From Terrimicrobiaceae bacterium (lineage in GTDB: Bacteria; Verrucomicrobiota; Verrucomicrobiia; Chthoniobacterales; Terrimicrobiaceae): 64,000 bases of DNA. Both the position numbers and the translations under genes were made by a program. This document shows positions 4,201 to 60,531 of the stretch, one piece after another (the stretch's first letter is position 1; the number at the start of each line of letters is the position of its first letter). The stretch is taken from NCBI GenBank assembly GCA_044344595.1, contig JBIJCR010000003.1, positions 5,960 through 69,959 of the forward strand, given 5' to 3'. The notes beneath the pieces were generated by a model. It worked only from the letters and a program-made list of their open reading frames with translations, did not search any database and was not told where the DNA came from.

Positions 4201-7200
4201 CGTGATCCAAGCCCATCCGATCTCCACCCCGGGTGTGTTTACCATCGTCGTGAGGGGTGCAGGAGGATCCAAGGGCACCTACACGCTGCGCCCGGTCATC
4301 AACGCCGTCCTCGAAGCCGAGAACCACGACGGCCCCGCGAACGACTCGCGCGCAGCCTCGCAGAGTCTGAACGCCGCGTTCATCCTTCCCGGCGGTCCTG
4401 TGGCCACGGCGACCGTGCTCGGCGAGACGCCGGAGGACTGGTTCAGCTTCACCCTGGGTGCCGGAGATAAGCTCAGCGCGACGCTCAAGACCTCCGGAGA
4501 CTCGGCGTTGGAAATCTATGACGGCACAGGCGCGCTGCTCGCCCGCAGTGTGGCCGGCCGGTTCAACGTTACCGAATTTATCGAAAAATATGTGGCCGGA
4601 TCCGCCGGCACCTACCATGCCCGGGTGATGGGAACGACCGGTTCCTACGCGCTCGTGCTGACGAAAAACGCGGCGTCCGACCTTGAGCAGAATGACAGCC
4701 ACGCCGCGGCTCAGGAAATCACCGGATACCCTGCGGCCTCGGGGGCAATCGTCCCCGGTGTCGGATTGTTTGCTGTGGAAAGTTGGAATGATTGGGATGA
4801 TACCACCCGGGCGCGCATCCACACGCTGGACCCGGTGACCGGCGCGATTATCAGAAGCTTCGATGCCCCGCAGCACCCAGAGGTAACAGTTCCCTACGGT
4901 GTCAACCTCGCCCATGACGGCACAAATTTGTGGTACTTACACATGTGGGACGCCGCAGACCCGACGGAACAGATTACTTTAAAGAAAACCATTCACAAGC
5001 TCAATGCCCTGACCGGAGAGAAGCTCGGATCGATCATCCATACCCCCGCACCAGACTTTGACATCACTGAAGCGCCCTATGGCCTCGCCTATGTCCGCGG
5101 GGAACTCTTCGTCGCAGACGGTACCAAGATCGATGTCTATTCGATCGCCACCGGCCAGTGGGTGCGGAGCATTGACTCGCCGATAGAGTTCAGGGCGTCC
5201 AACTTTGTGGGATTGGCTGGTGACAATGCCAACAACCACCTTTACGGCATCTCGCAAAGAGATAACAAAATCTACCGCATCGACCCCTCCGATGGAGCGC
5301 TCCTCGCCTCCTCCCCCGAGAACTTCCCATTGGGTCTCGTGCAGGGTATGGCCGTGGTCGCTGACGAGATTTTTATCTCAGCGATCGATGCCCTCTTAAC
5401 CAATTCCATGACGATCGACGTCTATGACCGGCTTACCTTTGAATTCAAGAGACGCATGCGCATTGCCATACCGAGGTTCATCGCCGGTCTGGGTGGCGAT
5501 GGAGCGGGAACCACAGACGACTGGTTCAGCTTCCGCGTGAATGAGGGCGATACCCTCGCCCTGGCGACCACAACACCCTTCGGGGAACCGCAGTCGCCTT
5601 ATTTCATCAACAACCCGCTCGACCCGCAGATCGAGCTCTACAGCCCTGAGAACACCTTGCTCGCGAGCAACGACAACGGTGCTGCCGACGGAAAAAACTC
5701 CGTGCTTTCGCACACGGCCACCGCCACCGGCCTCTACCGCGCCCGGGTGCGCGGTCTCAATCGCACCACGGGCGAATACGTCCTCACTGTGACCGGTGCG
5801 ACCGGCACCGCACCTGTTCCCCAGCTCGAGGCTGCCACACCGGCAAACGGTGACTTCCTCAAGGTCACGCCCACGGAGATCACGATCAATTTCGGTGCAC
5901 CCATCCTCCTCAGTTCGCTCCAGGCCAGCGACCTCACCGTGGATGGCGTCGCTGCGACTTCTTTCAGGATCGTGGACGGCGACACCGTCATCTTCACCCT
6001 GCCCACGGTCGGCGAGGGAGTCCGCAACGTTGCCATCGCTGCCGGGGCTATCCTTGCGGCAGACGGCACCGCGTTTGCAGGTTTCACATCGCAGTTCACC
6101 GTTGACCTCCGCGCGCCGCGGGTGATCTCGACTACTGTCCAGGAAAACGACTCGGTGCCGACCGGCAACCTCACCATTGCCATCCAGTTTAGCGAACGCC
6201 TCAAATCTGAAAACATCGACGCTACGGATTTCCTTCTCAGCGGCCCTCTCACGGGCAGACCCGAGGCCTCGTCCTTCAGCTACAATGCCAATACCTCGAC
6301 ACTCACGATCCAATACACGGGACTGGTCACCGAGGATCTCCTCACCTTCACGCTCCGCAGCGGGGATGGTAGGTTCGAGGATCCTGCGGGTAATGACCTC
6401 GACGGCGAATCCGTATTTCCCATGCCGCCGAACGAGTCTGGCGATGGCGTTGCCGGCGGCGACTTTGTCGTGAACTTCTTCGTGGACCAGGCCGGAGTTG
6501 GAGCACTCCCGGCGTTCACCGCGAGCGAACCGCGCGGCAGCCTTGCCTATACCTCGTCGAAGAGCGCCATGATCGCGCTGCCCGGCGATGCGGACAGCTA
6601 CACCTTCACGCTCGCCGCGGGCCAGACCCTTGCCGCCGCGGTGCGTCCAAACTCGACGTTACGCCCGGCGATCACTGTCACCGGCCCGGGCGGTAGCATG
6701 GGCAACGCCACGGCGACAGCCGCAGGGCAGGGGGCCTTGGTCCAAGCTGTGACTGCAGCCACGGCCGGCAACTATACGATCACCGTCACGGGTGCGGCGT
6801 CCACGACCGGATCCTACACAGTGGAGGCCGTGCTCAACGCCCTCGCCGAGGTGGAGAGCCGCAGCGGCGCAGATAATAATACCACCGCCAAAGCGCAGAA
6901 CATTGCAGCCAGTGCGCTCTCGCCGGCTCCCGGCGCTTCCCGCCTTGCCGTGGACGGGCGTGGCGATGGTATCAGCACCGAGGTGATTACCCCCGACAGC
7001 TTTGGCTATCACGCCGCGATGATCGGACACCGCTTCGAAGACATCAGCAAAACGGGCAACCGCTTGGTCATCGAACGTGACGATTTTGGTTATGCCATTG
7101 GCAACAGTATTTCCGCCACCGACCTCGCTGGCTTCACATTCCCGCTTTATGGCACGAATCACTCCAGCCTCTACATCAACGCCGAAGAGGGCTTGATCAC

Positions 7201-9862: not shown

Positions 9863-9957
9863 CCTGACTGTCACGGGCCACGGCACCAGCTATTCAGGAA
9901 TGCAACGCGGATGACAACAGGAGTCCAAATAGCTTGCTTACAGCGGGCGATTCGGAC

Positions 9958-12900
9958 ATGAATTACCGCCAGATGATGACTAGGGCCACTACGATTCTGG
10001 CCGCAGTGGCTCTGTCGCTGGCTACCCACGGCGCGGTGATGGCTGGTGTCACACCGTATCCTGCCCTTGCCCCCGACCTTTCCAGCTACGACGTGACAGC
10101 CGGCAGTACGGTGGTCCCGGTGGGCAAGCTCTGGCAGGAGCGGGGCGTGAAGTTCCCCGGGGAGGTGTATGACAAGCCTTCCTGGGCTCTGAGCGTTGCC
10201 CGCTTCGCTTCCGATCAGGGCTCGGTGCCCATCACGGTGACCGCATCCGAGCCGATTGTGCAATACCGTATCCAGCCTGACAGCCAGGGCATTTCCGCCA
10301 GCGTCAATGGCAACCAGTTGACCTTCACCCTTTCGGCGCCCACCAAGATCAAGTTGCAGATCAATAATTTGGAGGAGATGTACCTGTTCTATGATCCGCC
10401 GGAGGTCGGCGCCCCGCAGCTCGGCGATCCGGGCGTGACCAACGTGATGAGCTTTGTGATCGACAATACCGGTGCTACCAAGCAGACCGTGCAGGTTCAG
10501 GCCGCCCTCGATCATGTGCACCGGCAGGGCGGTGGCGTGCTTTACTTCCCTAACGGCACATACAAGGTCGGCCATCTGGACATCCGCAGCAACACCCATG
10601 TGTACCTGTCGCCCGGCGCGCTCATCCAAGGCTCGGGCGATTTCGCCGACTTTGAGTATGGTCGTGACTGGAATGACCAACTGATCGAGGGCCCGTTCAT
10701 CGGCATCAAGGACGCCCGGAATGTCAAAATCTCCGGCCGGGGTGTGATCGACGGCGCTGGCCGTGCCCTGCGCGACTGGCAGAACAACAACCCTTATTGG
10801 AACGGAACCAAGTGGACACTCACGCCCGGACGCAAAGCCAAAGCGATGCTGCTCCGCCCCCAGAGCAGCAGCAACATCGAGATCCGCGATGTCATTCTCC
10901 GCGATGCTTACACGTGGAACCTGCACATCCTCGATTCCGACTATGTCAACGTGGACAATGTGAAGATCATCAATGAACTGGGCGTAGCCGGCTGGTGGTT
11001 CAACTCGGGCGACATGTGGAACACCTGCGACGGCATCGACATCGACTCCTCCAGCCACATCACCATCAATGACTGTTTCATTCGCGGCGGCGATGACTGC
11101 ATCTCGATCAAGCCCGCCACCGATCGGTATGGTTTGGCCCGGTCCCTGGTCACCGACATCGATGTGACCAATACCACCGTCGAAGGCTGGAACTACTTCA
11201 AGCTCGCCGAAAAAGTCGAAGGGCAGACCGTAACCGACATCCGCCTTATCAACTTCGACGGCATGACCAATATAAACGGCGGCGGCATCATGCTCGAGCG
11301 CGGCGGCGAGAAGATGCTCTACGACAACTGGCTCTTCGAGAACTTGCGCATGGACGAAGCCACCGATGCCTTTGTCATCTACACCCTCTCGCTTGGCGAT
11401 GCATCCGACTATGTTTACATGAGCAACTGGACGTTCCGAAATGTCACGCTTCCCAACTTCGACACCTCCAGCATACTGGGTTCCGACGAGACGCATACAA
11501 TTGCCGGCTTTTCCTTCGAGAACCTCGCCATCTCGGCAAAGGTGATCACCAATGCCGCTGAAGCGAACATCAGCGTCAACTCCTGGGCCAACATCACCTT
11601 CAGAAACGGCCAGGGAAATACCAACTCGTATTTCCATGAGGCCGAGAGCCTCCCTCGCACGGGGACCTTGTCCAGCAGTGTCGTCTCCGACGTCAACCGA
11701 AGTGGCGATGCGACCGTCCGGACGGCGCAGACCAGCGGTTCCGGCCAGTATGTCGAATTCGCCGTCAACGTGCCCGTCTCCGGCACCTATAAGGTCCTCG
11801 TGAATTACGAGGAGGGCGGCGACAAGGGCAGGTTCGATTTTGAGGTCGACGGCAACCAGATCGGCACCATCGACATGTACCAATATATCTCGCGATATTT
11901 CCCGCGCTTCGAGACCGGGGTGAGGGCCCGGGTGGCCGCATTCGATCATGTCACACTCGCCGCCGGAAGCCACACGTTCCGTTTTGTGCGCCTCGATTCC
12001 AATCCCGACAGCAGCGGAAATATCGGCGAATGGGACTGCTTCACGCTGGTTGCTGATGACGGGGTTCCGACCGTGCGCATGATGACGGGCGTCCACGGCG
12101 CCGCGGAATCCGGTCCGGTCGCCGGCTCCGCCATCGTCACGCGCACCAACAACGTTGGGGATCTCACTGTCTTCTACGAGGTTGCCGGCTCTGCCGTGAA
12201 CGGCATCGACTACCAGGCCCTCAGCGGTTCGCTGGTCATCCCCCACGGCCAGCACTCCGCTCCCATCACCATCGCCCCCATCGGAGACGACCTGAAGGAA
12301 GGTGTCGAAACCGTGCGTCTCACGCTCCGCGCCGGCGCCGGATATCGCCCGGCCATCCCATCGGGCGCATCCATCGATATCCTTGACCGCCTCGCTTCGC
12401 CTCTCGTGGGCATCGCCCCCGCCCAATCGAGTTTTGCCGAAAACGCCGGGCAGGGCGCTGTGCGAATCACCCGCCAGTCAACCGTCGGCGACCTCCTTGT
12501 CAGTTACGTTGTAGGCGGAACAGCCACCAGCGGTATCGATTTCCAGTCGCTTCCCCTCAGCGTGGTGATTCCAGCCGGCCAGTCGTTTGTCGATATCCCC
12601 GTCGTTGGCATCAGCGATACCGTCGTCGATCCGGATGAAGCCGTGGTCATCACCCTGGCCGCCGGCGCCTACACCGTGGTCGGCTCCGGTGCCGCTACGA
12701 TCCACATTGATGATGATGAGAATCCCGGAACACGCACCCGACTCGTCTCCTATGATGGCATCACCAACAACTACGCAACCACCAACCTGAACTTCAGCCG
12801 CACGCCCTCGGTGGTGGTCGGTGATTACGATGGTGATGCCGCCGGCGACGATGTGCGTCACACCGTCGCCTTCAGCTCTGCCGCCCCCCTCAACCCCGCC

Positions 12901-14880
12901 TCCGGCTACTCGGGTCCCGCTTTCTACGGCGGCTTCCTCGGCGAACGGATCAACAGCACCGGTGGCGCCGGCATGCTGGCCCGGGTGAGGGCCACCACCA
13001 TGGCGAATCTGACTGACAGCCCTTACGTCAGCTTATCCAACAGCGCCGCCAGCCGCAACGGCCTCTACGGACTGATCTACTTTCCCACCGACTCCAGCAC
13101 CTTCGATCAATACTCCACCCTCGAATTGGGCACCATAGCCCGCGCTAACGTCGATCTCCGCTGGCTTGTCCGAGAGGGGAACCAGTTCTGGGTCTCCAAG
13201 CAGACCATGGGTGAAACAGGGGCGATCCGTGCCACACTCACCTTTGACAGCGATGGTCCCGACGGCTATTGGGCGCCATACGATCCGGCCGCCAACCTCA
13301 ACTTCAACGAAGCCCAGGCTTTCCAGCTGAAACAGTTCTACGACATCACTGCGGTTGGCTACCTTGTCGACACCTCGGACTCGCAGAATCTGGTCCGGAC
13401 TGCCGAATGCGGATTCTTCGCTGCAACCGGCCTCGTCAACGCGCCGACCACGCAGACTCTCTCCCTTTCGGTCATCGACGCCATAGCTTCCGAAGTCGCC
13501 TCCGACCCCGGACAGTTCCAGTTCACCCGCTCCGACACCAACGGCGATCTGGTAATCGATTACGTCCTCGCCGGCACGGCGCGCAACGCCGATGATTATA
13601 TCACTCTTCCGGGATCGGTGACCATTCCCAATGGCCAGTCTGTCGCCACTGTGATGGTCACTCCACTCGAAGACGCCGTCATCGAAGGTATTGAAAGCGT
13701 TTCCCTCGCCTACGCCCGCCTGAGCAATCCCGCCTATCATGTCATCAACGGTCAGGTTGCACTGGACATACAGGACGGCCAATACCAGCCGACAGTTCCC
13801 TCCATCATCCTCACCGCCACCGATGCCAGTGCGGCCGAGGCTGCACAGGAACCCGGCGTCTTCTCTGTCACCCGCGCCGGTGGTATTGCTGGCGACCTGA
13901 CCGTCAACTACACCATTGGCGGCACGGCGACCAACGGCACGGATTACAGCACGATCTCGGGCTCGGTGGTGATCCCGGACGGTCAGACCTCTGCCACCAT
14001 CACGATCAGCCCAGTCGATGACAGTCTCATCGAGGGCAGTGAGACCGTGACGCTGACCCTGGCCGCAGGCTCGGGTTACACGATCGGCGCCCAGAGCAGC
14101 CATGCGGTGATGATCGTTGACAATAAAGTCTACGAAATTCCGGTCGCGAGCATTGCCTCGAGCGGTGCTGTCGCATTCGAGGCCGGCGGCGATCCAGGCG
14201 CATTCACGGTGACACGCAGCGGTGCGAGGGCCGGAGCACTGACGGTGTTCTACACGATCAGCGGCACGGCCAGCAACGGCACGGATTACACCGCGATCTC
14301 GGGTTCGGTGGTGATCCCGGACGGTCAGACCTCTGCCACCATCACGATCGCCCCCGTCGATGACAGCCTCATCGAGGGCAGTGAGACCGTGACGCTGACC
14401 CTGGCCGCCGGGGCGGGTTACGCAATCGGCGCGCAAAGCAGTTATACGGTGACCATCGCCGACAACGACTCCGACGTGCCCCTATCGTCCATTGAGAGTT
14501 GGCGCCAACTGTACTTCGGTGCACCCGACAACACCGGCGATGGGGCGGATCTCAACGACTTCGACCAGGACGGCATCCAGAACCTGTTGGAATTCGCCTT
14601 CGGCCTGGATCCGAAACAGAACAGCACTGGACAAATCCCCACGCCGCAAGAGACCGGCGGCAACTTCGTATTAGCCTTCACCCAACCAGCCGATGTCGCC
14701 GGCATAACCTATGGCGCGGAATGGAGCGAAACGCTGGCACCCGGAAGTTGGACCGACGTACCCGACACCGGCAATACCGCGGCATCCCCACCAGAGCACA
14801 TCTTCAGCGTGCCCGTCGGCACCAAGACAAACCTCTTCATGCGGCTGAAAGTGACCAATCCGGTTTCCTTAAGCCCATAA
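9958..14880 (+). CDS. Giant secreted right-handed beta-helix glycosidase (GH28-like) with CBM-like domain and five Calx-beta domains
   Basis: The track ORF begins at TTG 9934, but ATG 9958 gives a signal peptide (MNYRQMMTRATTILAAVALSLATHGAVMA). GH28-type motifs are NTCDGIDID (about 11021-11047) and GGDDCISIK (about 11086-11112). A CBM6/35-like block follows (HEAESLPRTG...GTYKVLVNYEEGGDKGRFDFEVDG). There are five G-DL-V-Y...G-A--G-DY...G-(V/L)-IP-GQ Calx-beta units and a C-terminal DxDxDG module. Confidence 0.85.
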   Translation: MNYRQMMTRATTILAAVALSLATHGAVMAGVTPYPALAPDLSSYDVTAGSTVVPVGKLWQERGVKFPGEVYDKPSWALSVARFASDQGSVPITVTASEPIVQYRIQPDSQGISASVNGNQLTFTLSAPTKIKLQINNLEEMYLFYDPPEVGAPQLGDPGVTNVMSFVIDNTGATKQTVQVQAALDHVHRQGGGVLYFPNGTYKVGHLDIRSNTHVYLSPGALIQGSGDFADFEYGRDWNDQLIEGPFIGIKDARNVKISGRGVIDGAGRALRDWQNNNPYWNGTKWTLTPGRKAKAMLLRPQSSSNIEIRDVILRDAYTWNLHILDSDYVNVDNVKIINELGVAGWWFNSGDMWNTCDGIDIDSSSHITINDCFIRGGDDCISIKPATDRYGLARSLVTDIDVTNTTVEGWNYFKLAEKVEGQTVTDIRLINFDGMTNINGGGIMLERGGEKMLYDNWLFENLRMDEATDAFVIYTLSLGDASDYVYMSNWTFRNVTLPNFDTSSILGSDETHTIAGFSFENLAISAKVITNAAEANISVNSWANITFRNGQGNTNSYFHEAESLPRTGTLSSSVVSDVNRSGDATVRTAQTSGSGQYVEFAVNVPVSGTYKVLVNYEEGGDKGRFDFEVDGNQIGTIDMYQYISRYFPRFETGVRARVAAFDHVTLAAGSHTFRFVRLDSNPDSSGNIGEWDCFTLVADDGVPTVRMMTGVHGAAESGPVAGSAIVTRTNNVGDLTVFYEVAGSAVNGIDYQALSGSLVIPHGQHSAPITIAPIGDDLKEGVETVRLTLRAGAGYRPAIPSGASIDILDRLASPLVGIAPAQSSFAENAGQGAVRITRQSTVGDLLVSYVVGGTATSGIDFQSLPLSVVIPAGQSFVDIPVVGISDTVVDPDEAVVITLAAGAYTVVGSGAATIHIDDDENPGTRTRLVSYDGITNNYATTNLNFSRTPSVVVGDYDGDAAGDDVRHTVAFSSAAPLNPASGYSGPAFYGGFLGERINSTGGAGMLARVRATTMANLTDSPYVSLSNSAASRNGLYGLIYFPTDSSTFDQYSTLELGTIARANVDLRWLVREGNQFWVSKQTMGETGAIRATLTFDSDGPDGYWAPYDPAANLNFNEAQAFQLKQFYDITAVGYLVDTSDSQNLVRTAECGFFAATGLVNAPTTQTLSLSVIDAIASEVASDPGQFQFTRSDTNGDLVIDYVLAGTARNADDYITLPGSVTIPNGQSVATVMVTPLEDAVIEGIESVSLAYARLSNPAYHVINGQVALDIQDGQYQPTVPSIILTATDASAAEAAQEPGVFSVTRAGGIAGDLTVNYTIGGTATNGTDYSTISGSVVIPDGQTSATITISPVDDSLIEGSETVTLTLAAGSGYTIGAQSSHAVMIVDNKVYEIPVASIASSGAVAFEAGGDPGAFTVTRSGARAGALTVFYTISGTASNGTDYTAISGSVVIPDGQTSATITIAPVDDSLIEGSETVTLTLAAGAGYAIGAQSSYTVTIADNDSDVPLSSIESWRQLYFGAPDNTGDGADLNDFDQDGIQNLLEFAFGLDPKQNSTGQIPTPQETGGNFVLAFTQPADVAGITYGAEWSETLAPGSWTDVPDTGNTAASPPEHIFSVPVGTKTNLFMRLKVTNPVSLSP

Positions 14881-15037
14881 ACGGATTTTTAGACAGGAGG
14901 GCAGGATGGAGATGATTGACAGGAAAGGCTTTGGCTTTTGTTTGATATCGCACAAATCATTTCAAACCCATCGCATCATAAACAGATCATCCTCTGTGTT
15001 CTCTGTGCGCTCTGTGGTTAATTCTGCTGTATTCGGG
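14874..15037 (+). mobile_element. 164-bp MITE-like element, copy A
   Basis: Near-identical to the copies at 46910..47073 (+), 55877..56040 (-) and 59426..59589 (-). Its left end (cccATAAacgg) is mutated relative to the consensus cccgaaaacgg and contains the TAA stop (14878-14880) of the upstream gene. The flanks TTAAG and TTCAA do not match. Confidence 0.55.
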
Positions 15038-15355
15038 TTCAACGATCGCAAGAGAGTGTGTACCAATAGCTGTGTGGTTTGTGACTCTCGTTCAGATTGT
15101 GCTAGGGGTTGATCCTATGGGTCTTGGGAGTAAGTACCTCCTCAGATCGGTAGGCTCCCAAGAGCCGGATGCGCGCGAATATGTGCTGCTGAAGGCCCTT
15201 GGTAGGCTTTGTGCGGAGCACCACCTCCCCTATGTTGTGGTGATGTCGTAGGCCAATGCCGCGACGTTTACATCATCTACGCCACCTTTTTCAGCAGTAA
15301 GCGTTGCGCTGAATTAGCTGCTGGCAATGATAGGGATTTCCGAATACAGTGATCT

Positions 15356-41757: not shown

Positions 41758-44700
41758 TCAAGGTGCTTTGTGGAACTCGAAAACGCCCCAGTTTATGGGA
41801 GTGAGCATGGCCTCGCCGGGAACGTCTGTCGTCATCCCGCTGTTTTTGTTGTGCCAATAGAGCCTTTGCACTGTCTCTCCGGAGGGGCCACGCAGTAATC
41901 CAATGTCACCTTTGACGGTGGTGCCATCAGAGGGCTGCAGGCCAAGAACTTCCAAGGGCACGGAGAACTCGAAGAGAAAACGGTCGAGAGGTTTCATCTT
42001 GACGTAGGTTTCCGCCGGAAATTGGACCAGATCGGTGATGTCCTCCACGCGGTCGAAAAACACATTGCGCCAACCGGAGCTGAATTCGACGCGTTTATCG
42101 CTGTTTTGCGGATCAACTTGACGGTAGAGGGTGGCCTTGATTTCGCCGCCTTTTTTGCTGCGAGTTACCAAGATACGCTGATCGCCAGCAACCGGCTCGG
42201 TGCGGGACGGATCGGCTTTCGGGTTGTTGGAGATCATCAAGTCGAGAGCGCCGCCGGTTTTGAAAAGAATCTGGGGGTCTTCCAGATTATTTTCGAGCTT
42301 CTCCCGGAATGATGTGCGGACAGCGACATGCAACCGGTCTCCGGCTACCATGACAGCGGCATCCAGGTTCTCTTCGAGGGGAGCCCACTGGGCGTTTTTC
42401 CAATCATTGGCTTCAGCCAAGGTGGGACGCGGGGCGGACGAGACAGACACTTTCAGAGGCGCTTGGGTCTCGCGTGCGGTGGCTGTACGGCGGGCCATAC
42501 TTTGGCTGGCCGCAATGAGCTGTTCGCCGGTTACGGTGAGCGTTTGGGGAGGAATGCGGCGAATGGTATCAAGGCCATCCAGACGTGTTATACTGGAGCG
42601 CTCGCCGCCGATCACCATGTAGATATTGCCGTTTTGGGCCTGGATGACGGAGGGCCAAAAACTTTCCTGCCCATTGGTGTATTCGCTCACCGCATCGCCT
42701 CGTTTGATGTCTTTGGGCCAGCTTTTGGCGCGTCGCTGGTCTTGGGTAACCGAGGCGACAAATAATCCGTCGGAAGTCATGGCATAAATCCCGCCGAAGT
42801 TTCCGTTGTAAAACCAGATCGATCCGGCGTCGCCCTTTTCGGGAAACACGGCGGGCCCGAGGACGCGGGTGCCCCCGATAATATCCCCAGGCCACCGGGG
42901 GGGGGGAGAAGCATGGGAGGAATGCAGCGAGGGCCATTCATTGGGATAAGTCCACATCAGTTTACCGTCGCGATAGCCTTTGAGCGGGCCGTCGGATTGA
43001 ACAATCCATCCGTCGTGGCCGCGGAGCACCATGTTGCCGCCACTGCCGGTCTCGTTGTATTTCAGAGGCTCTGGCGTGACCGGGGTCTTGGCATCGGCTT
43101 TGAAAACCGGCGCGCCGACCTCATTGAAACCGGTGGGTTTGAAACTGTTGCCCCGCGAGTCAATCAATTCCATCTCCGGTGAGAGGGTTAATTTGCCCAC
43201 GGGGAAGTTTTCATCAAAGACTACTTCGTTGGGCTGGGGGCTGCCATCACCGTTTTCATCGGTCCAGATGAACAGCATCTGTTTCGGATATTTTGCGGAC
43301 ATATTCAAGGATGCGGGGAGGATTCCTGCCCACTCTTCTCCCTTGAATGGAGGGAAATCAGAGGGATTGCCGAGCGCGGCTGCCGGGCGGGCGATTCGGT
43401 CTTCCTCCCCCATCAGCCAGAAAACGGCCACATCGGCGCCACCGGTGGCATGATCGTGTGTGGCATTGGTGAGATAACGGCGGTTGTTGATAAGGATAGG
43501 GAATTGTGGGGCGCCGCGCATGCGGGCATGGGCAGCAAGACCCTGGCGGTCGTAAATGAGGCTGTTCACGGTGAAGTCACCCTTTTCGAAATCCAGCTTG
43601 AACTCCATGGGAAGTGCCCCGTAATGCTTGTGGTCGTAGTAGAAGTATTGGAGATCCGGAGAAAGGACGCCTCCGCCGCCGTAGTTGGTGGGGCCATAGA
43701 AGGCCTTCTGGAAGCTGCCGTCTTTGTTCCACAGACTGAACCGGCGAGGTCCCGTGGTACTTTCGATCACCCAGAGCGTACCATCCGGCGCGACAGCTAC
43801 CCCGTTAGGGGATCTCATGGCGGTCTCATCGTAACGGCCAATCTGAGGCGTGCCCGGCTTGCCGTAGGTGCGAACAAGTTTTCCGGAAGCATCGAAGGCC
43901 TTGACTTGCTGCGACGGGTTTTCACCCCATACGTCGAAGTCGGAAACGTAAATTTTACCGTCCCCGGCGATTGTGATCTGATTGGCGTTGTCGAGACCGG
44001 AAGTGATGAAGTCACGGGGAGCAGGAAGCTCCGCGCCATTGGTCGACCAATTGGCAGGCAGATCATAACGAACCACTTTGTTGCCTGTTCCCGCCAGGAG
44101 GAAACGGCCTTTGGGATCAAAGGCGAGACCGGCCGGGGAGGGAAGCTCCACCTCCTTCACGAGTCGGCCTGCCTTGGCGTCGATGACGAGAATTTTACCG
44201 GCATCGCGCATGCTGACGACAAGGATGCCGTTGTAGGCTGCCAAACCGCGTGTTTCCATGTGGCGGAATTCATGCGTGAGGGATAGCTCCTCGGGAAGAA
44301 CGCGCTTTTCCTTGCCGTCCTTCAGTAGCGCCATGAGGCGAAGTGCCTTAGCTTTACCGCCTTTTTTCTTTTTGCCGTCCTCTGCGATATTGACGGTGTA
44401 AACGTGGACATCCGGGTCCGCCAAGGGGCCACGATCTTGAGTGACGAAAAAGGCCGCGGTGTGGGTGCCTCCTGCCCATCTGCGTCCGTTGAGCTTACGG
44501 CCGTCAAGGGTCATCCAGACCAAGCCGTCGCCCCATTCTGCTCCCGGGGAAACGATGAGCATTTGCGGCTCATTGCCGTAAGGTGAGCCGTCTGGAAGAA
44601 AGACGATGCCGGTTGGTGAAACGTGATCGGCGAGCCAGCGCCCGATCTGGCGTCCGTTTTCCAAGTAACTCCATGGAGGGGTGCCCGGATTGTAGACTGT

Positions 44701-45096
44701 GAACTCGTATTTGAGTTCAATCTTGTCGCTGGTGATACCGCGAACGGTGTAAGTACCCGGTTCGACCATCGGCCCTTGCAAGCCGGTTTTTTTATTGTTC
44801 AGGGTGTCGGCCCCCGCCAATCCATCCCACCAAATCGTTTGCCTGCCGGCAGGCAAGAGAGTTTCGCTCATTAAATTTCTGATACGCTTCCCGTCTTTGT
44901 CATCAATGACCAGCGTGACATAACTCGGTTTCTCCAAATCGATCTGGATAGGGATCAATCCTTGTGTGCTCTGGCCTTCCTCCAATTTGACGGGCTGGGC
45001 ATTTGAGGAGTTCGCGAAGGCCAAAACGACAAGAAGGATCAGGAGGGGCGTGAGAAGGGAAAACAATGTCTTTTTGGGTGGGGTTTTAATAGGCAT
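41758..45096 (-). CDS. Large secreted protein with NHL/beta-propeller-like repeats and a C-terminal beta-sandwich-like domain
   Basis: 1112 aa. Signal peptide MPIKTPPKKTLFSLLTPLLILLVVLAFANSSNA. NHL-like segments (SPNGVAVAPDGTLWVIE; GKIYVSDFD). No catalytic motif recognised. Confidence 0.78.
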   Translation of the reverse strand: MPIKTPPKKTLFSLLTPLLILLVVLAFANSSNAQPVKLEEGQSTQGLIPIQIDLEKPSYVTLVIDDKDGKRIRNLMSETLLPAGRQTIWWDGLAGADTLNNKKTGLQGPMVEPGTYTVRGITSDKIELKYEFTVYNPGTPPWSYLENGRQIGRWLADHVSPTGIVFLPDGSPYGNEPQMLIVSPGAEWGDGLVWMTLDGRKLNGRRWAGGTHTAAFFVTQDRGPLADPDVHVYTVNIAEDGKKKKGGKAKALRLMALLKDGKEKRVLPEELSLTHEFRHMETRGLAAYNGILVVSMRDAGKILVIDAKAGRLVKEVELPSPAGLAFDPKGRFLLAGTGNKVVRYDLPANWSTNGAELPAPRDFITSGLDNANQITIAGDGKIYVSDFDVWGENPSQQVKAFDASGKLVRTYGKPGTPQIGRYDETAMRSPNGVAVAPDGTLWVIESTTGPRRFSLWNKDGSFQKAFYGPTNYGGGGVLSPDLQYFYYDHKHYGALPMEFKLDFEKGDFTVNSLIYDRQGLAAHARMRGAPQFPILINNRRYLTNATHDHATGGADVAVFWLMGEEDRIARPAAALGNPSDFPPFKGEEWAGILPASLNMSAKYPKQMLFIWTDENGDGSPQPNEVVFDENFPVGKLTLSPEMELIDSRGNSFKPTGFNEVGAPVFKADAKTPVTPEPLKYNETGSGGNMVLRGHDGWIVQSDGPLKGYRDGKLMWTYPNEWPSLHSSHASPPPRWPGDIIGGTRVLGPAVFPEKGDAGSIWFYNGNFGGIYAMTSDGLFVASVTQDQRRAKSWPKDIKRGDAVSEYTNGQESFWPSVIQAQNGNIYMVIGGERSSITRLDGLDTIRRIPPQTLTVTGEQLIAASQSMARRTATARETQAPLKVSVSSAPRPTLAEANDWKNAQWAPLEENLDAAVMVAGDRLHVAVRTSFREKLENNLEDPQILFKTGGALDLMISNNPKADPSRTEPVAGDQRILVTRSKKGGEIKATLYRQVDPQNSDKRVEFSSGWRNVFFDRVEDITDLVQFPAETYVKMKPLDRFLFEFSVPLEVLGLQPSDGTTVKGDIGLLRGPSGETVQRLYWHNKNSGMTTDVPGEAMLTPINWGVFEFHKAP

Positions 45097-45723
45097 GTGT
45101 TGATTTTGTGTTCGAAGTTGAGGAAGGATTTATATAAAAACGGTGCCACACTTGGGCGGTCCGGGCCTCACGCAGCTTAGGGATACTTTGCGAGGGGGAA
45201 TGGTGCATCCAAAGCAGCGCGGGCGGCCATTCCGGCCTGAGACATAAAAACGGCATTGGTCATGCGTCCGGGCGCAACTCGTTAGTTGGTTTAGGCCGTG
45301 AGCATGACTAAAATTTAACTCTGATGTTGCCTGTCCAGTGGGCTGTGCGAGATGTTGATCATGCAAAGCATGGACATAAGGCAAAAGCATTTCCTTTTCT
45401 CCGCACTCACCCCCCTCACGCCCGGATGCGAAGACCTGATTGCCTATGCAGCGCTGGGGTAAGTCTACCTCCACGAGGTCAGTATAGTATTCAGCGATAA
45501 TCAAAATTCGTCTGCCGGATTCCAAGAATGGGGGGATCATCCAAATACTCTCATATATACTACAAGCGACGTAATAGGAAACTAAAAATTTCCTGTTTCT
45601 GCAAAAGTTTCGATACGGATGTCATGGCCTATCAGTTAACAATCCACTCCAGCCCGGTTGAGACCAGAGTCATTTATTGTCGAGGCAACGCGCATCGAAT
45701 TTTGCACATTGTAATTTTGAAAT

Positions 45724-46767
45724 TTAAAAAAAAGACTTCAGTTTGGCGTTGCCGTGAACAAATTCGTCTTGGCGGTGTGTGGCATCATAACCCATGCAGG
45801 TGCTGTGGGGAATTTCCAGCACCCGGAAGGCTCCGCGAGGGATCTGCGCCAATGCGGTTTCAATAAGCCATGGCGACCAATCGGGGTCATCGTGCGGCCA
45901 TAGGCCTTCGCCATAGAGAGAGAGTCCGCCTCCACCGTGGTCCACATTCACCATGCCGTATTCTTGCAATGCCCGGGCCACAACCCTGCCTCCCCGGCCC
46001 AATGGCAGCTTATCCAGATCAAGGTTGGGGTCTAGTTGCAGCACCGCACCTTGGGGAATGCCTCCGGGCATACATCCATCACACCAAATGGCTGGTGCAC
46101 AAAATTCCTTGTAGGCTGCGAAGTAGGTGGCAAAAGCCAGTTTGTGCTCGATACGCCCGCGGCGGATTTCATCTCGCATGATCAAACCTGCGATGGCAGG
46201 TACGCCCGGAGCCCTGCTGGGACCGTAGAGGTGTACACTCTCCCCGTCTTCCGGCCCCGGGTCAAGTTTCTCAAAAACTCCGCTACCATCCAAAGCGTAG
46301 GTCATGCCGGTGCAGGATTCCCAACCGCCTTCTGCACGTTGGGAAAGCGCCCACATGTCCCAAGCCACTCCGCGCTCGCGGTCGACCAAGGCCAGGTGTG
46401 CATCGCCTTGGCCATCTGGTCGTGCATTTACGGGCAAAGGGATGAGCGGGCCAAACCCCGGTCCGTGGCCGTAAGGATGTCCTGGACAAAGTCGGTGACG
46501 GCTGTGCTCCAAAAAGTATTGCATATGTTTTTGCTCATATGTGCTTGCGGCTTTGCGCTCGAAAGACCGATGAATCTGGACCAGCGGAGTCTTGTCATCC
46601 ACCTCATAAACCGGGATCGTCCATTCCCTGAGATTGATGTAGAGGCCGAGTGGATTGTCGCATTCCAGCATGCGGATCCACAACGCGCTACGCGGGTCGG
46701 TAGGGGTGGACTCGGAAATGGGTTGGTTCCAGAAGCTGTCTGCGGAGAAAAAGCGGTCGTTACTCAT
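45724..46767 (-). CDS. Conserved protein of unrecognised family (paralog 2)
   Basis: 347 aa, no signal peptide. Paralog of 35953..36900; the shared blocks are listed under that feature. Confidence 0.8.
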   Translation of the reverse strand: MSNDRFFSADSFWNQPISESTPTDPRSALWIRMLECDNPLGLYINLREWTIPVYEVDDKTPLVQIHRSFERKAASTYEQKHMQYFLEHSRHRLCPGHPYGHGPGFGPLIPLPVNARPDGQGDAHLALVDRERGVAWDMWALSQRAEGGWESCTGMTYALDGSGVFEKLDPGPEDGESVHLYGPSRAPGVPAIAGLIMRDEIRRGRIEHKLAFATYFAAYKEFCAPAIWCDGCMPGGIPQGAVLQLDPNLDLDKLPLGRGGRVVARALQEYGMVNVDHGGGGLSLYGEGLWPHDDPDWSPWLIETALAQIPRGAFRVLEIPHSTCMGYDATHRQDEFVHGNAKLKSFF

Positions 46768-46909
46768 AAGGGAAATCTTGTTCCCTTTTAAAGGAGCATG
46801 TTAGAGCGAAACCTGTCGAGAATGTTCGTTCAAGGGCCGTAGGTGTTGAAATGTTTCCACAGCCATTGAAGTTCTCTGGCGATCCTTTGGCTCATGAGCC
46901 TCTTTTCAG

Positions 46910-47073
46910 CCCGAAAACGGTTTTTTAGACAGGAGGGCAGGATGGAGAGAAATTACAGGAAAGGCTTTGGCTTTTGTTTGATATCGCACAAATCATTTCA
47001 AATGCATCGCATCATAAATAGATCATCATCAGTGTTCTCTGTGCGCTCTGTGGTTAATTCTGTTGTATTCGGG
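46910..47073 (+). mobile_element. 164-bp MITE-like element, copy B
   Basis: Left end CCCGAAAACGG. The reverse complement of the right end is CCCGAATACAA, against CCCGAATACAG in the other copies (the other copies match the left end at 9 of 11 positions). It is flanked by identical TTCAG at 46905-46909 and 47074-47078. Confidence 0.6.
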
Positions 47074-47164
47074 TTCAGTTCGTTTGGCAGTGGTTGAGCG
47101 GTCGCAAATATCAGGAACCTCACCACCGGATGTTCAAACAATGGCTTTGTGCCGACACCCTAAG

Positions 47165-55734: not shown

Positions 55735-55876
55735 ATAAATGATCTGTCGATCCCACGTCGGCTCAACTCTTCGGTATAATACTCCTCGTCCAGTGCAAAT
55801 TCGCGCTGGAGGCCAATTGAGACAACCTCACGTATTTTGCCAATGAGCTCACCTTCGTGGCTTCCGCCAAGTTGAA

Positions 55877-56040
55877 CCCGAATACAGCAGAATTAACCAC
55901 AGAGCGCACAGAGAACACAGAGGATGATCTGTTTATGATGCGATGGGTTTGAAATGATTTGTGCGATATCAAACAAAAGCCAAAGCCTTTCCTGTAATTT
56001 CTCTCCATCCTGCCCTCCTGTCTTAAAATCCGTTTTCGGA
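55877..56040 (-). mobile_element. 164-bp MITE-like element, copy C
   Basis: Flanked by identical TTGAA (forward strand) at 55872-55876 and 56041-56045. Its right-hand ~110 nt are identical to copy A. Confidence 0.6.
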
Positions 56041-56155
56041 TTGAACCAGGATGGCAACCTCTCTCGCGTCGTCTGCAACAAGGAATTCCCCCTCCGCTCG
56101 ATCCGCATAGGTTTGCCATTTACGTTAGCTGAGTCTCGACTATTTGTCTTTTTGT

Positions 56156-58039: not shown

Positions 58040-58705
58040 ATGAAATTCATTCTCCTCATAACCACATTCGCACTTCTGGCCTCTGAATCCTATGCAGGAA
58101 ATTTTGGTCCAGCACCATTCCGCAATGGATCTCCGCTTGTTACGGGTGTGGATGGAACTTACCAAGCCACTGCAAGGTCTCAGAATGTGACCGGCATTTT
58201 TAGATTTGCCTACTCCGGTGGCACTCAGTCATCAAATCCGCGTCAAAATTCGTGGGTATTTTTTGTGAATGGACAGGTAGTCAACGGTTCAGTTGAAGCG
58301 GCTTTGGATGATTCCAGTTTGTCTGGAACCCTGGATAGCGCAGCAACCAGCGTTCCTAGAGATTCTAATGGTGCTGTCGTTCTGCCTCTCTTTATTTTTA
58401 GTGGTGGTAATTCAGGTTCAGGTTCATTTCAAGGCAAGCTCAACTCGAAGTCTGCGAACGGAGCTTTCAGTGGAACTGGTGAGCTTAGTCCAACCCCTGC
58501 ATCGACCAATCAAATCACCGTCCTTTCTCAAAATCGTTCAGATGGGCAGAATGGCACAAATGCAGGTACTGTTTTTGTAACTACTACCACCTACACCAAT
58601 GCCGGTGGTACATTGCCCCCAGTCTCGTTCAAATTCCGTGGTGTTCGCACCTCTACCTCCGCTAACGGAGCGGGATCTACCTCTACAAACTCTCCTTCAA
58701 ACTAA
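58040..58705 (+). CDS. Secreted Ser/Thr/Gly/Asn-rich hypothetical protein
   Basis: 221 aa. Signal peptide MKFILLITTFALLASESYAG. Low-complexity S/T/G/N composition with no recognised motif. Confidence 0.65.
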   Translation: MKFILLITTFALLASESYAGNFGPAPFRNGSPLVTGVDGTYQATARSQNVTGIFRFAYSGGTQSSNPRQNSWVFFVNGQVVNGSVEAALDDSSLSGTLDSAATSVPRDSNGAVVLPLFIFSGGNSGSGSFQGKLNSKSANGAFSGTGELSPTPASTNQITVLSQNRSDGQNGTNAGTVFVTTTTYTNAGGTLPPVSFKFRGVRTSTSANGAGSTSTNSPSN

Positions 58706-58712
58706 CGATTCC

Positions 58713-59255
58713 TTGCTGTCGCGCGGAAAATCTTTGAAAGCTCCGCTTCACTCGGATTCGGGGATGACAATTCTGGAAATAGCTGCCGTGGTGGCTATTT
58801 TCGGTATCCTGGCAGTTCTCTTCTTTGTGGTGAGCGACCGCCTGCCCATGCGCGCCGAATCGGCTAAATGCATGGCAAACATGCGTTCGATCCAAGTCGG
58901 TCTTGCCGCTTATCTTACAGATAAAGGTAATTGGCCGCAAGAGCCCGTAGACCAGCTTGGCAACAATGAAGACGCCTATGAAGACTGGTGGATTGCTGAG
59001 ATGAAGCCTTATGGTGTCAACGAAGCGGACTGGATGTGTCCCACAATCAAGCGCTTAGTCACAAGGAAAAGCCCGAATGGCCGTCCCAAGGTGCATTACA
59101 CACCTACGATGTTTGACAATCATCCTTCCACGCCATATCGCTGGTCCACTCAGCCTTGGCTCATCGAAATCGGAAACATGCACGGTCAAGGTGCCCTCAT
59201 ATGCTATCCTGACGGTTCGATCAAGCCAATGGACGAGGTTGTTGGCTCTAATTGA
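58713..59255 (+). CDS. Pseudopilin-like protein: prepilin-type N-terminal cleavage/methylation motif plus C-terminal H-X9-DG motif
   Basis: G|MTILEIAAVVAIFGILAVL has Glu at +5 after the putative cleavage Gly. The C-terminal HGQGALICYPDG is exactly H-X9-DG. The start is uncertain: in-frame TTG 58713 avoids overlap with the upstream gene, while ATG 58764 would remove the leader peptide. Confidence 0.78.
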   Translation: MLSRGKSLKAPLHSDSGMTILEIAAVVAIFGILAVLFFVVSDRLPMRAESAKCMANMRSIQVGLAAYLTDKGNWPQEPVDQLGNNEDAYEDWWIAEMKPYGVNEADWMCPTIKRLVTRKSPNGRPKVHYTPTMFDNHPSTPYRWSTQPWLIEIGNMHGQGALICYPDGSIKPMDEVVGSN

Positions 59256-59425
59256 GATCGCCCAATAGGACTCCAATCATTCCGTCTTCATTGGTGGAAT
59301 TGATAGCCTGCCGCGTGGCTGAGTATTATGTTCAAAATACTCATTTGCTTGAATTTCTCTATTTTTTATCAACTGGATTCCTTGAAATTATAGCCCGCAG
59401 GAGTCGGAGTCCATGTCTTGTTAAA

Positions 59426-59589
59426 CCCGAATACAGCAGAATTAACCACAGAGCGCACAGAGAACACAGAGGATGATCTGTTTATGATGCGATGGGTTTG
59501 AAATGATTTGTGCGATATCAAACAAAAGCCAAAGCCTTTTCTGTAAAATCTCTCCATACTGCCCTCCTGTCTAAAAATCCGTTTTCGAG
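59426..59589 (-). mobile_element. 164-bp MITE-like element, copy D
   Basis: Flanked by identical TTAAA (forward strand) at 59421-59425 and 59590-59594. It has about 8 mismatches to copy C, all in the SD/ATG-proximal third. Confidence 0.6.
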
Positions 59590-59637
59590 TTAAATACCAT
59601 TCCCGAGGACTTGAGGCAGTGGGCCAGCCTGACGGAC

Positions 59638-60123
59638 TCACCCTACTACAGCAACAAGCCATTCTTGCAAGCTACCGTAGATGCCCATTCGCATAAGGGC
59701 GAATTCTCGTGGATCGTCTAGATCTCGCGGTGCGCGGCTGAGATCGGCGTCGGCGAATTGGTGAATCTCAGCCAGTGCGAGGCGGGCTTGATTCAGTGCG
59801 TTGAGCCAGAGATCGATGTGTTTACGCGGAATGGTGAATTTCAGTGATCCATCGGGATTGCGCTGCGCACTACGGAGGTCGGCAGCGACGGATTCTCGCG
59901 CGGCGAGGAAGCTATCGTGCAGGTCCGTTTCGACGAGGGATTTCCAATCATCCAAAAGATCCACTTCCTCCACATCTTCCGAGGGCTGAGGAAAAAGACG
60001 CGACTCGACCAATGGATCGCCCGACTCCACCGGCTCCCGAATCGAGCAGAGTATCTGGTAAAAAGAATCTTCCACCTGATCAAAAAAAACCGAGCCGTTT
60101 GGGAGTATTTGAATTTTAATCAT
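59638..60123 (-). CDS. Acidic hypothetical protein downstream of clpS (possibly DUF2017-like)
   Basis: 161 aa and rich in D/E. Its position after clpS recalls the clpS-DUF2017 pairing I remember from Actinobacteria. I did not verify homology. Confidence 0.6.
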   Translation of the reverse strand: MIKIQILPNGSVFFDQVEDSFYQILCSIREPVESGDPLVESRLFPQPSEDVEEVDLLDDWKSLVETDLHDSFLAARESVAADLRSAQRNPDGSLKFTIPRKHIDLWLNALNQARLALAEIHQFADADLSRAPRDLDDPREFALMRMGIYGSLQEWLVAVVG

Positions 60124-60505
60124 TTTCGGATTTTGGACAGAATTAACAGAATTCTAAAATTAAGCACAACCGAGCGAAGTGAGATAGAGCGCTGAAGGCG
60201 GCCCCGGAGGGGTGAGTGAAACGAATCAAAGGACACAGAGGACACAGAGAATGTGAGTTGGTTGCACTTTCAAAAGCCTTCAATGTTTCTTCAATATACC
60301 TCTCCTAAAAATTCCTGTTAATCCTTTAAATTGATTCACTGCGCCTACCACTTGGGTTGTCTACAGCAGTCTTTTTCGCGCAGCTTCGATTCTGTCATCT
60401 TGTATAAAAATCCGTTTTCAGAATTAGCAGGATGGAGGTCTGTGTATTCAACCCTACTTCATCTTCCTCCTCCGTGTTCTCTGTGTCCTCTGTGGTCAAA
60501 ATTTT
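60124..60505. repeat. Degenerate, rearranged relatives of the 164-bp element, including an 18-bp long-range inverted repeat
   Basis: cggattttggacag (60127-60140) resembles the element's left end. cacagaggacacagagaa (60234-60251) is the exact reverse complement of ttctctgtgtcctctgtg (60477-60494). aaaatccgttttc and gcaggatggagg occur at 60407-60437. Confidence 0.45.
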
Positions 60506-60531
60506 GTATTTAAACCTCTAAAACCTCGCTG

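Follow-up and report, generated by a model that had tools for sequence, protein, structure and literature searches.

A probable 164-bp MITE of freshwater Verrucomicrobiota that duplicates a 5-bp TTNAA target

REP- and ERIC-type repeats are stable imperfect palindromes without target duplications, and the palindrome-associated elements derived from IS200/IS605 have neither target duplications nor inverted repeats, carry subterminal hairpins and insert beside a fixed motif of 4-5 nt. Duplications of 5 bp are also made by IS1634, ISH3, IS701/ISAba11-like elements and an ISNCY group, and the ends of piggyBac have the form CCC...GGG.

MITEs usually have terminal inverted repeats of at least 10-15 bp (PMC11602168) and are assigned to type II where no insertion sequence (IS) with matching inverted repeats is known in the genome (PMC3542288). 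The TIMEs, typified by 38-bp Tn3-type inverted repeats and a length of ~262 bp, usually occur as single copies on Pseudomonas plasmids and make 5-bp (sometimes 6-bp) duplications in A/T-rich targets; these are kept by 4 of 18 database copies, and the loss of matching direct repeats has been ascribed to recombination between copies (PMC4133298). A member of the IS1380 family, IS1247, bears 16-bp inverted repeats that match at 13 of 16 positions, together with a 5-bp direct repeat (PMC3281130). The IS1380-like elements are recognised bacterial relatives of piggyBac (PMC5718144), for which the account in PMC7351741 gives a TTAA target and a 4-bp duplication.

The element and its copies in the window

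The window, which is the whole 64-kb stretch of DNA analysed here, encodes glycosidases, sulfatases, a SASA esterase, AddAB-like nucleases, ClpS and DUF2017. Repeat finding and alignment reveal four full copies of a 164-bp non-coding element, 92-97% identical, with a GC content of 44% vs 59% for the window and a density of roughly one copy per 10-16 kb. A profile search of the window gave no fifth full copy, and two degraded relatives lie at 60.12-60.51 kb. Copy B, the focal element, occupies 46910-47073 of the forward strand (CCCGAAAACGG...GTATTCGGG; nhmmer E=2.9e-57) between a TTCAG at 46905-46909 and an identical TTCAG at 47074-47078 on the same strand. Copies C and D are on the reverse strand at 55872-56045 and 59421-59594, flanks included (elements 55877-56040 and 59426-59589), and have on both sides the forward-strand pentamers TTGAA and TTAAA, respectively, or TTCAA and TTTAA in the orientation of the element. 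As the original prediction had described, B, C and D are thus bracketed by identical pentamers that differ between copies, and the exception is copy A (forward strand, 14869-15042 with flanks; element 14874-15037), where TTAAG faces TTCAA. The predicted imperfect terminal inverted repeat is likewise present, the left terminus CCCGAAAACGG matching the reverse complement of the right end, CCCGAATACAG, at 9 of 11 positions (chance P=1.3e-4, the ends being set independently by the duplication boundaries). This repeat is only 11 bp long, with no similarity past position 11, and lies at the short end of the usual range for MITEs.

The four insertions are shared by close relatives of the source genome. 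Copy B is found in every strain-level contig of one set (L052-L060), copy C is identical in two further contigs (L075 and L076), and all strain-level contigs with exactly the same flanking proteins contain A, B, C and D, so that the insertions are fixed in the population; none of these contigs could serve as an empty site. The window copies are ~3% diverged from the consensus and, being both fixed and diverged to this extent, are old insertions that give no evidence for ongoing activity.

Copy A has affected a gene. Its left end (14874-14880) reads CCCATAA and not CCCGAAA, and the TAA within it is the stop codon of the ORF at 9934-14880, which encodes a 1648-aa Calx-beta/GH28 protein and so terminates inside the copy; the original 3' end of this gene has been replaced by the insertion. 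The same ORF and the neighbouring giant ORF 1241-9862 contain direct repeats of another sort, D1 (13836-14465; 288 nt, 81% identical, 342 nt apart) and D4 (five copies of 42 nt within 4052-12066), which probably reflect repeated protein domains such as Calx-beta and not mobile DNA.

The two degraded relatives are nested. A diverged and longer relative of ~276 bp lies on the reverse strand at 60147-60422, its right boundary being approximate, inside an older degraded copy on the forward strand (approximately 60120-60508) that it splits into pieces at 60120-60141 and 60428 to ~60508, the latter detected by nhmmer with E=6e-4 for 60466-60500. The forward-strand flanks of the nested relative are ATTAA (60142-60146) and ATTAG (60423-60427), and those of its orthologues in L063 and L065 are TTAAT and TTACT. 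The older copy lies in the ClpS-DUF2017 spacer, possibly flanked by TTTAA at 60115-60119 and 60509-60513. This spacer is ~395-404 nt long in L063, L065 and the window but shorter in L067 (116 nt) and L070 (68 nt), and the older copy is absent from the 68-nt spacer of L070 and L072. The orthologue of window positions 60124-60517 in L067 (2386-2500) reads CCCTG TTAAT TCTGAAATTCTG TTAAT TATGTC, in which both TTAAT duplications survive and enclose no more of the nested element than its final 12 nt. The arrangement resembles the product of a deletion between direct repeats of 9 nt (TTAATTCTG) or the footprint of an excision; L067 was considered as an empty site for the nested relative and set aside as a secondary deletion, not a pristine site, since it keeps both TTAAT pentamers and the 12-nt remnant. 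The surroundings of DUF2017 also vary. Another family member lies downstream of this gene in L063 and L065 (2987-3240), in the opposite orientation (ACAAA/CCCGATTTCAGGAGAATTAAC...), and the region just past DUF2017 in the window (58040-59640) is variable and has two small ORFs, where relatives have toxin-antitoxin genes (HTH_3/Gp49, PIN_3) or a DNA methylase.

Beyond the window, copies are truncated at the 5' or the 3' side (L006, L011, L047, L024 and L029), and those of L007, L009, L014, L019 and ELA022 contain internal GC-rich insertions of 27 to 270 nt. The longer variants measure 191-437 bp (L003 3095-3343, L009 1066-1502 and L010 3405-3639, as well as those of L007, L014 and L019), and carry their GC-rich modules at a small number of recurring internal insertion points; one module of ~80 nt (TTTGACTCGTTCGCTCC...CCGGTTGCTCG) is common to the ELA022 copies and the nested relative in the window. 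The family is modular, with lineage-specific subfamilies. A 9-mer, CTCTGTGCG, of which the canonical element has two partial units, is tandemly expanded near the right end of a reverse-strand copy at L008 1-172, where the contig ends inside the expansion. Beside the copy in L003 (ELA022) there is an extra segment of ~1.5 kb (1560-3070) that encodes a 400-aa AAA-type ATPase, which removed it from consideration as a transposase source; the orthologous metagenome contig L034 (825-927) lacks this segment, and where L034 has a complete element, L003 has just ~40 nt of a reversed one.

Flanking pentamers and an empty site

A 37-nt core is invariant among the copies of a first scan, which searched an invariant core of the element against one genome per species of bacteria and archaea. 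Ten loci matched, all in Verrucomicrobiota MAGs (the Spartobacteria UBA5019, Bin_73_16 and ELA022, and one Terrimicrobiaceae MAG), and a shorter core matched 41 metagenome loci, many at contig ends. With termini placed by fuzzy matching and insertion sites de-duplicated by their flanks, these searches yielded ~45 further insertion sites from public genomes and metagenomes, all of freshwater Verrucomicrobiota and drawn from no fewer than four MAGs of this phylum and a number of lake metagenomes.

Equal flanking pentamers are present in 16 of the 30 non-redundant copies with both flanks and comprise 11 different sequences (TTCAA, TTTAA, TTAAA, CTTAT, CTCAA, TTAAT, CTAAA, TTTAT, ATAAA, TTTAG and TTCAG); a 17th matching pair of 31, ATTAA/ATTAA in L016, is obtained when a 1-nt insertion in its terminus is allowed. 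Shuffling of the right flanks among copies gave a mean of 1.56 matches and a maximum of 8 in 100,000 shuffles. The matches are confined to a width of 5, with one chance case across widths 3, 4, 6, 7 and 8 and none in shifted registers. A tabulation of flanks over a larger set had been named beforehand in the original prediction as the test that might overturn it, and the pentamers match well above shuffled flanks; the view that they are target-site duplications left by transposition is upheld by these counts and by a relative lacking copy B that is described below.

The flanks also define a target. Across the 39 distinct left and 41 distinct right flanks, the bases favoured are T(0.7) T(0.9-0.98) N A(0.9-0.98), followed by A>T>G, which gives the consensus TTNAA. 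The pattern N-T-N-A-N accounts for 33 of the 39 left and 39 of the 41 right flanks vs 4.3% of background pentamers in these genomes, and the bias is absent at positions outside the pentamer. The TTYAR preference proposed earlier was therefore right in taking the flanks as target-like and wrong in its motif, the third position being free to hold any base and not a pyrimidine only. Since the pentamers co-vary copy by copy in 11 sequences, TTNAA is the duplicated target and not a part of the element.

Matching flanks are lacking in 14 of the 31 copies. Simple decay fails to explain all of these mismatches because copies with matching and with unequal flanks are equally diverged, with a mean of 5.2 differences from the consensus in both groups; at 3.2% divergence per site decay predicts ~72% intact pairs, and 62% are observed among the 164-bp copies. 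Strongly unequal yet young copies, those of L033, L048 and L005, are fitted better by recombination between copies or by chimeric assembly than by mutation. The unequal junctions of copy A recur in three independent assemblies (L078, L079 and L086), so the mismatch is genuine and a chimeric join in the window is ruled out; it is best read as a later mutation or as recombination between copies. This spectrum of truncated, nested and flank-exchanged copies is the expected picture of an ageing population of transposons.

An unoccupied site is observed for copy B. The only close homologue of the 347-aa gene beside it, at 86% identity, is on L074, a species-level relative that aligns at 83% on both sides of copy B, lacks the copy in the orthologous spacer and has no element-like sequence. 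Between the aligned blocks lie 317 nt in the window and 158 nt in L074; the difference of 159 nt compares with 169 nt for an element and a single duplication. If the element is taken out together with one TTCAG, the window and L074 run collinear over the junction (...TTTTCAG/TTCGTTTGGCAG vs ...CCACCAGTTCATTGGGCAT), where L074 carries a single and diverged copy of the target site. Only 54% of the aligned spacer columns are identical in this intergenic DNA, so that the comparison establishes the insertion and leaves the exact pre-insertion pentamer unreadable. Three other orthologous pairs (L003/L034, L004/L049 and L019/L036) were rejected as empty sites, their intergenic DNA being too diverged or rearranged, and the 91% relative L073 loses synteny with the window beyond DUF2017.

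The mobilising enzyme and competing explanations

The observations as a whole are best explained, with a probability of roughly 85%, by a 164-bp MITE that was moved in trans, probably by a transposase of the IS1380 type. The first part of this reading, that the element is a MITE and thus a non-autonomous cut-and-paste DNA transposon, is very likely in its own right, as it is short, has no transposase gene and no conserved coding capacity, and combines terminal inverted repeats and copy-specific target-site duplications with dispersed copies and presence or absence between related genomes. Since the searches gave no partner with matching ends, it falls under the type II MITEs as defined in PMC3542288. 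In the mechanism that we infer from these features, a DDE transposase supplied from elsewhere would bind both ends of an element that has no coding capacity itself, 5'-CCCGAA...TTCGGG-3', which form the 11-bp imperfect inverted repeat, and would join them to a target cut with a 5-bp stagger at N-T-N-A-N sites (consensus TTNAA); repair of the stagger would then leave the copy-specific 5-bp direct repeats.

No transposase gene was detected in the window itself, as the original prediction had stated: tblastn with two IS1380 transposases gave no significant match, and Pfam scans of the 36 main ORFs showed none, in one of them among the 25 of 42 matched families listed. An autonomous partner with the same ends, for which the original prediction had proposed a search of the genome, did not emerge from the window, from 0.54 Mb of related loci, from viral contigs or from plasmid and phage collections, and the viral contigs, plasmids and phages contain no copies of the element either. 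The 0.49 Mb of DNA fetched for this purpose contain no long element that combines CCCG...CGGG ends with equal pentamers; a search for a full-length partner by termini and duplication returned 14 chance pairs, the best of them inside rpoC, and searches with a solo terminus recovered only diverged short relatives.

A single transposase remnant points to the IS1380 family. An ISEcp1 transposase probe found one match in the 0.54 Mb (L031 375-677, minus strand; E=8e-14), within a minus-strand ORF at 339-710 that encodes 123 aa from the interior of an IS1380-family transposase; the 0.54 Mb of fetched Verrucomicrobiota DNA holds no other. The fragment matches positions 138-244 of the 419 in NCBIfam model NF033539 (E=2e-17), with support from Pfam PF01609 and PF13701, and gives an ungapped alignment, at 41% identity, with an Aliarcobacter IS1380 transposase (residues 133-245). 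Among annotated sequences it is closest to elements on Aliarcobacter plasmids (41-43% identity), and the cluster collection searched has no entry for it. It has an H where the 'DST' motif of Aliarcobacter has D, and no element ends could be assigned to it. Some 90-120 nt separate the fragment from the right end of the complete copy at L031 78-253, an adjacency seen in one case with a chance expectation of roughly 3%, and a weak 12-residue match on the far side of this copy is collinear with it, which suggests that the copy may have inserted into a dead IS. With the autonomous partner missing, the attribution is circumstantial and draws on this one adjacency and on shared anatomy, and the odds that the mobilising transposase belongs to the IS1380 family, bacterial relatives of piggyBac, appear about even.

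The shared anatomy is clearest on the Aliarcobacter cibarius plasmid pACIB (NZ_CP043858.1), where the IS1380 element is 1470 bp long and has CCCG/CCCA ends, CCCGCATTATGCAATAG and CCCAGATTATGCAATAG, that match at 15 of 17 positions. Its loci (L091-L095) include 44311-45780, 76001-77470 and 211796-214799, one copy being split by an IS5-family insertion. All three complete copies have duplications of the form N-T-N-A-N (ATAAT, ATTAA and ATAAA), as do the flanks of sister elements of this IS (TTTAT, ATTAA and ATAAA), a target preference that finds no mention in the literature examined. The CC...GG ends of ISEcp1 form a 12/14 inverted repeat, and its flank, TCATA, falls outside N-T-N-A-N, so this target is not a family-wide trait of IS1380.

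The strongest competing explanation keeps the MITE and changes the enzyme, which might instead come from another family that makes 5-bp duplications, such as Tn3 (as for the TIMEs), IS1634, ISH3, the IS701/ISAba11-like elements or the ISNCY group. This is plausible if on balance doubtful. In its favour, the searches gave no partner, the L031 fragment has a weak second NCBIfam match to ISH3 (E=3.7e-4), and the A/T-rich 5-bp duplications of the TIMEs, kept by 4 of 18 copies, resemble the mixed flanks seen here (PMC4133298). The ends of Tn3, however, are 38-bp inverted repeats (PMC4133298) vs the 11 bp starting with CCCG in the element, the one transposase remnant located beside a copy has its best score with IS1380, and the nearest annotated IS1380 element has the same CCC ends, 5-bp duplication and N-T-N-A-N target.

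It is highly improbable that the repeat is instead a functional RNA or regulatory module, such as a small RNA gene or a REP/ERIC-like repeat, that is only secondarily mobile and whose copies serve the host. In favour of this, the copies lie between genes and are fixed in the population, and the 37-nt core is invariant in the copies of the first scan. This invariance is, however, mostly a bias of selection: the scans used patterns from within the core, and its sequence is diverged in relatives recovered by a terminus alone. Per-site variation is roughly even along the element. No Rfam family reaches its gathering threshold and no tRNA is detected, the folding energy equals that of shuffled sequence on both strands (z -0.15 and +0.45), no promoter-like or terminator-like consensus site is present, and the orientation to neighbouring genes is inconsistent.

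More improbable still is a small protein encoded by the element. A strong Shine-Dalgarno-like motif and an ATG (AGGAGG-N5-ATG) at element positions 22-35 open a 44-codon frame that runs past the right end, and gene callers have annotated ORFs of 47-77 aa on copies. This frame, however, has no stop inside the element and would give a different C-terminus at each copy, insertions in L007, L009, L014 and L019 destroy or shift it, the ATG context is lost in diverged relatives, and the database matches are all ORFs called on other copies and lack Pfam domains. The same AGGAGG-N5-ATG was considered as a retained transposase start and rejected, as its peptide matches only short ORFs on other copies.

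Least probable of all is that TTNAA belongs to the element, as a terminal motif or the core of site-specific recombination, and that the copies spread by recombination without a staggered-cut duplication: the flanks are indeed alike (T2 and A4 in over 90%) and 14 of 31 copies are unequal, but a fixed core would be identical at every copy, whereas positions 1, 3 and 5 vary between copies and agree within them (11 pentamers; 16 of 30 vs 1.56 expected), and L074, without the element, has one diverged copy of the site.

Comparison with known systems

The element is of an ordinary kind, and its family is apparently undescribed in the literature searched, where no description was found of this family, of Verrucomicrobiota MITEs or of IS1380-derived MITEs; this is no proof of novelty. 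The main text of a survey of MITEs in 183,232 genomes does not mention Verrucomicrobiota (PMC11602168). A high-copy mobile element is hereby documented in a phylum without one described in the literature searched. It leaves the general understanding of transposons unchanged, and its observed effect on genes is small, copy A supplying the stop codon of the 1648-aa protein; under the tentative extension given below, its copy density in the window would also suffice to affect the ends of genes and the intergenic DNA of polysaccharide-degradation loci. Its practical bearing is on metagenomics: the element breaks assemblies of abundant freshwater Verrucomicrobiota, with many contigs ending inside copies, and can create apparent flank exchanges, so that knowledge of its sequence and boundaries should aid the binning and finishing of these genomes.

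Among known systems, two kinds of palindromic repeat do not fit. The element has copy-specific duplications and no significant folding, which sets it apart from IS200/IS605 derivatives, and the same duplications and fold scores (z -0.15 and +0.45) separate it from the REP and ERIC types. The TIMEs and the element are both non-autonomous, have 5-bp duplications of A/T-rich targets and include many copies with unequal flanks, but the element has 11-bp CCCG ends in place of 38-bp Tn3-type repeats and is present in high copy on chromosomes. With MITEs in general it shares its small size, lack of coding sequence, multiple and mostly intergenic copies, inverted repeats and target-site duplications, and metagenome contigs break at its copies; it differs in the shortness of its 11-bp inverted repeat and in not folding into a long hairpin as many MITEs do (fold z about 0).

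The closest anatomical match is with the IS1380 family, whose direct target repeats of 4-5 bp and 5'-CC termini with short imperfect inverted repeats are both found here. The termini compared are CCCGAAAACGG and CCCGAATACAG for the element, CCTAGATTCTACGT for ISEcp1 and CCCGCATTATGC for the Aliarcobacter element; all have CCC or CC...GG(G) ends and 5-bp duplications, with inverted repeats matching at 15/17, 13/16 and 12/14 positions in IS1380 elements vs 9/11 here. The IS1380 elements are, in contrast, autonomous, measure 1.5-1.7 kb and encode a DDE_Tnp_1_4 / NF033539 transposase, whereas the element has 164 bp and no gene. The Aliarcobacter IS has the same N-T-N-A-N target, but its terminal sequences beyond CCCG are unrelated to those of the element.

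The element does not fit the piggyBac definition, as flank matches are absent at width 4, and the loci examined give no evidence for seamless excision; piggyBac is eukaryotic and is described with a 4-bp TTAA duplication (PMC7351741), whereas the bacterial element duplicates 5 bp around a free central base. Both nevertheless use a palindromic A/T target in a TT..AA frame that is duplicated on insertion. A tentative extension, somewhat doubtful on the present evidence, is that this is the first MITE family tied to the IS1380/piggyBac lineage, moved by a Verrucomicrobiota transposase of the IS1380 clade that cuts a strictly palindromic TTNAA target with a 5-bp stagger. Should the IS1380 link be true, the TTNAA target and its 5-bp stagger would extend the parallel between IS1380 and piggyBac, and the element would represent a bacterial counterpart of the TTAA specificity of piggyBac.
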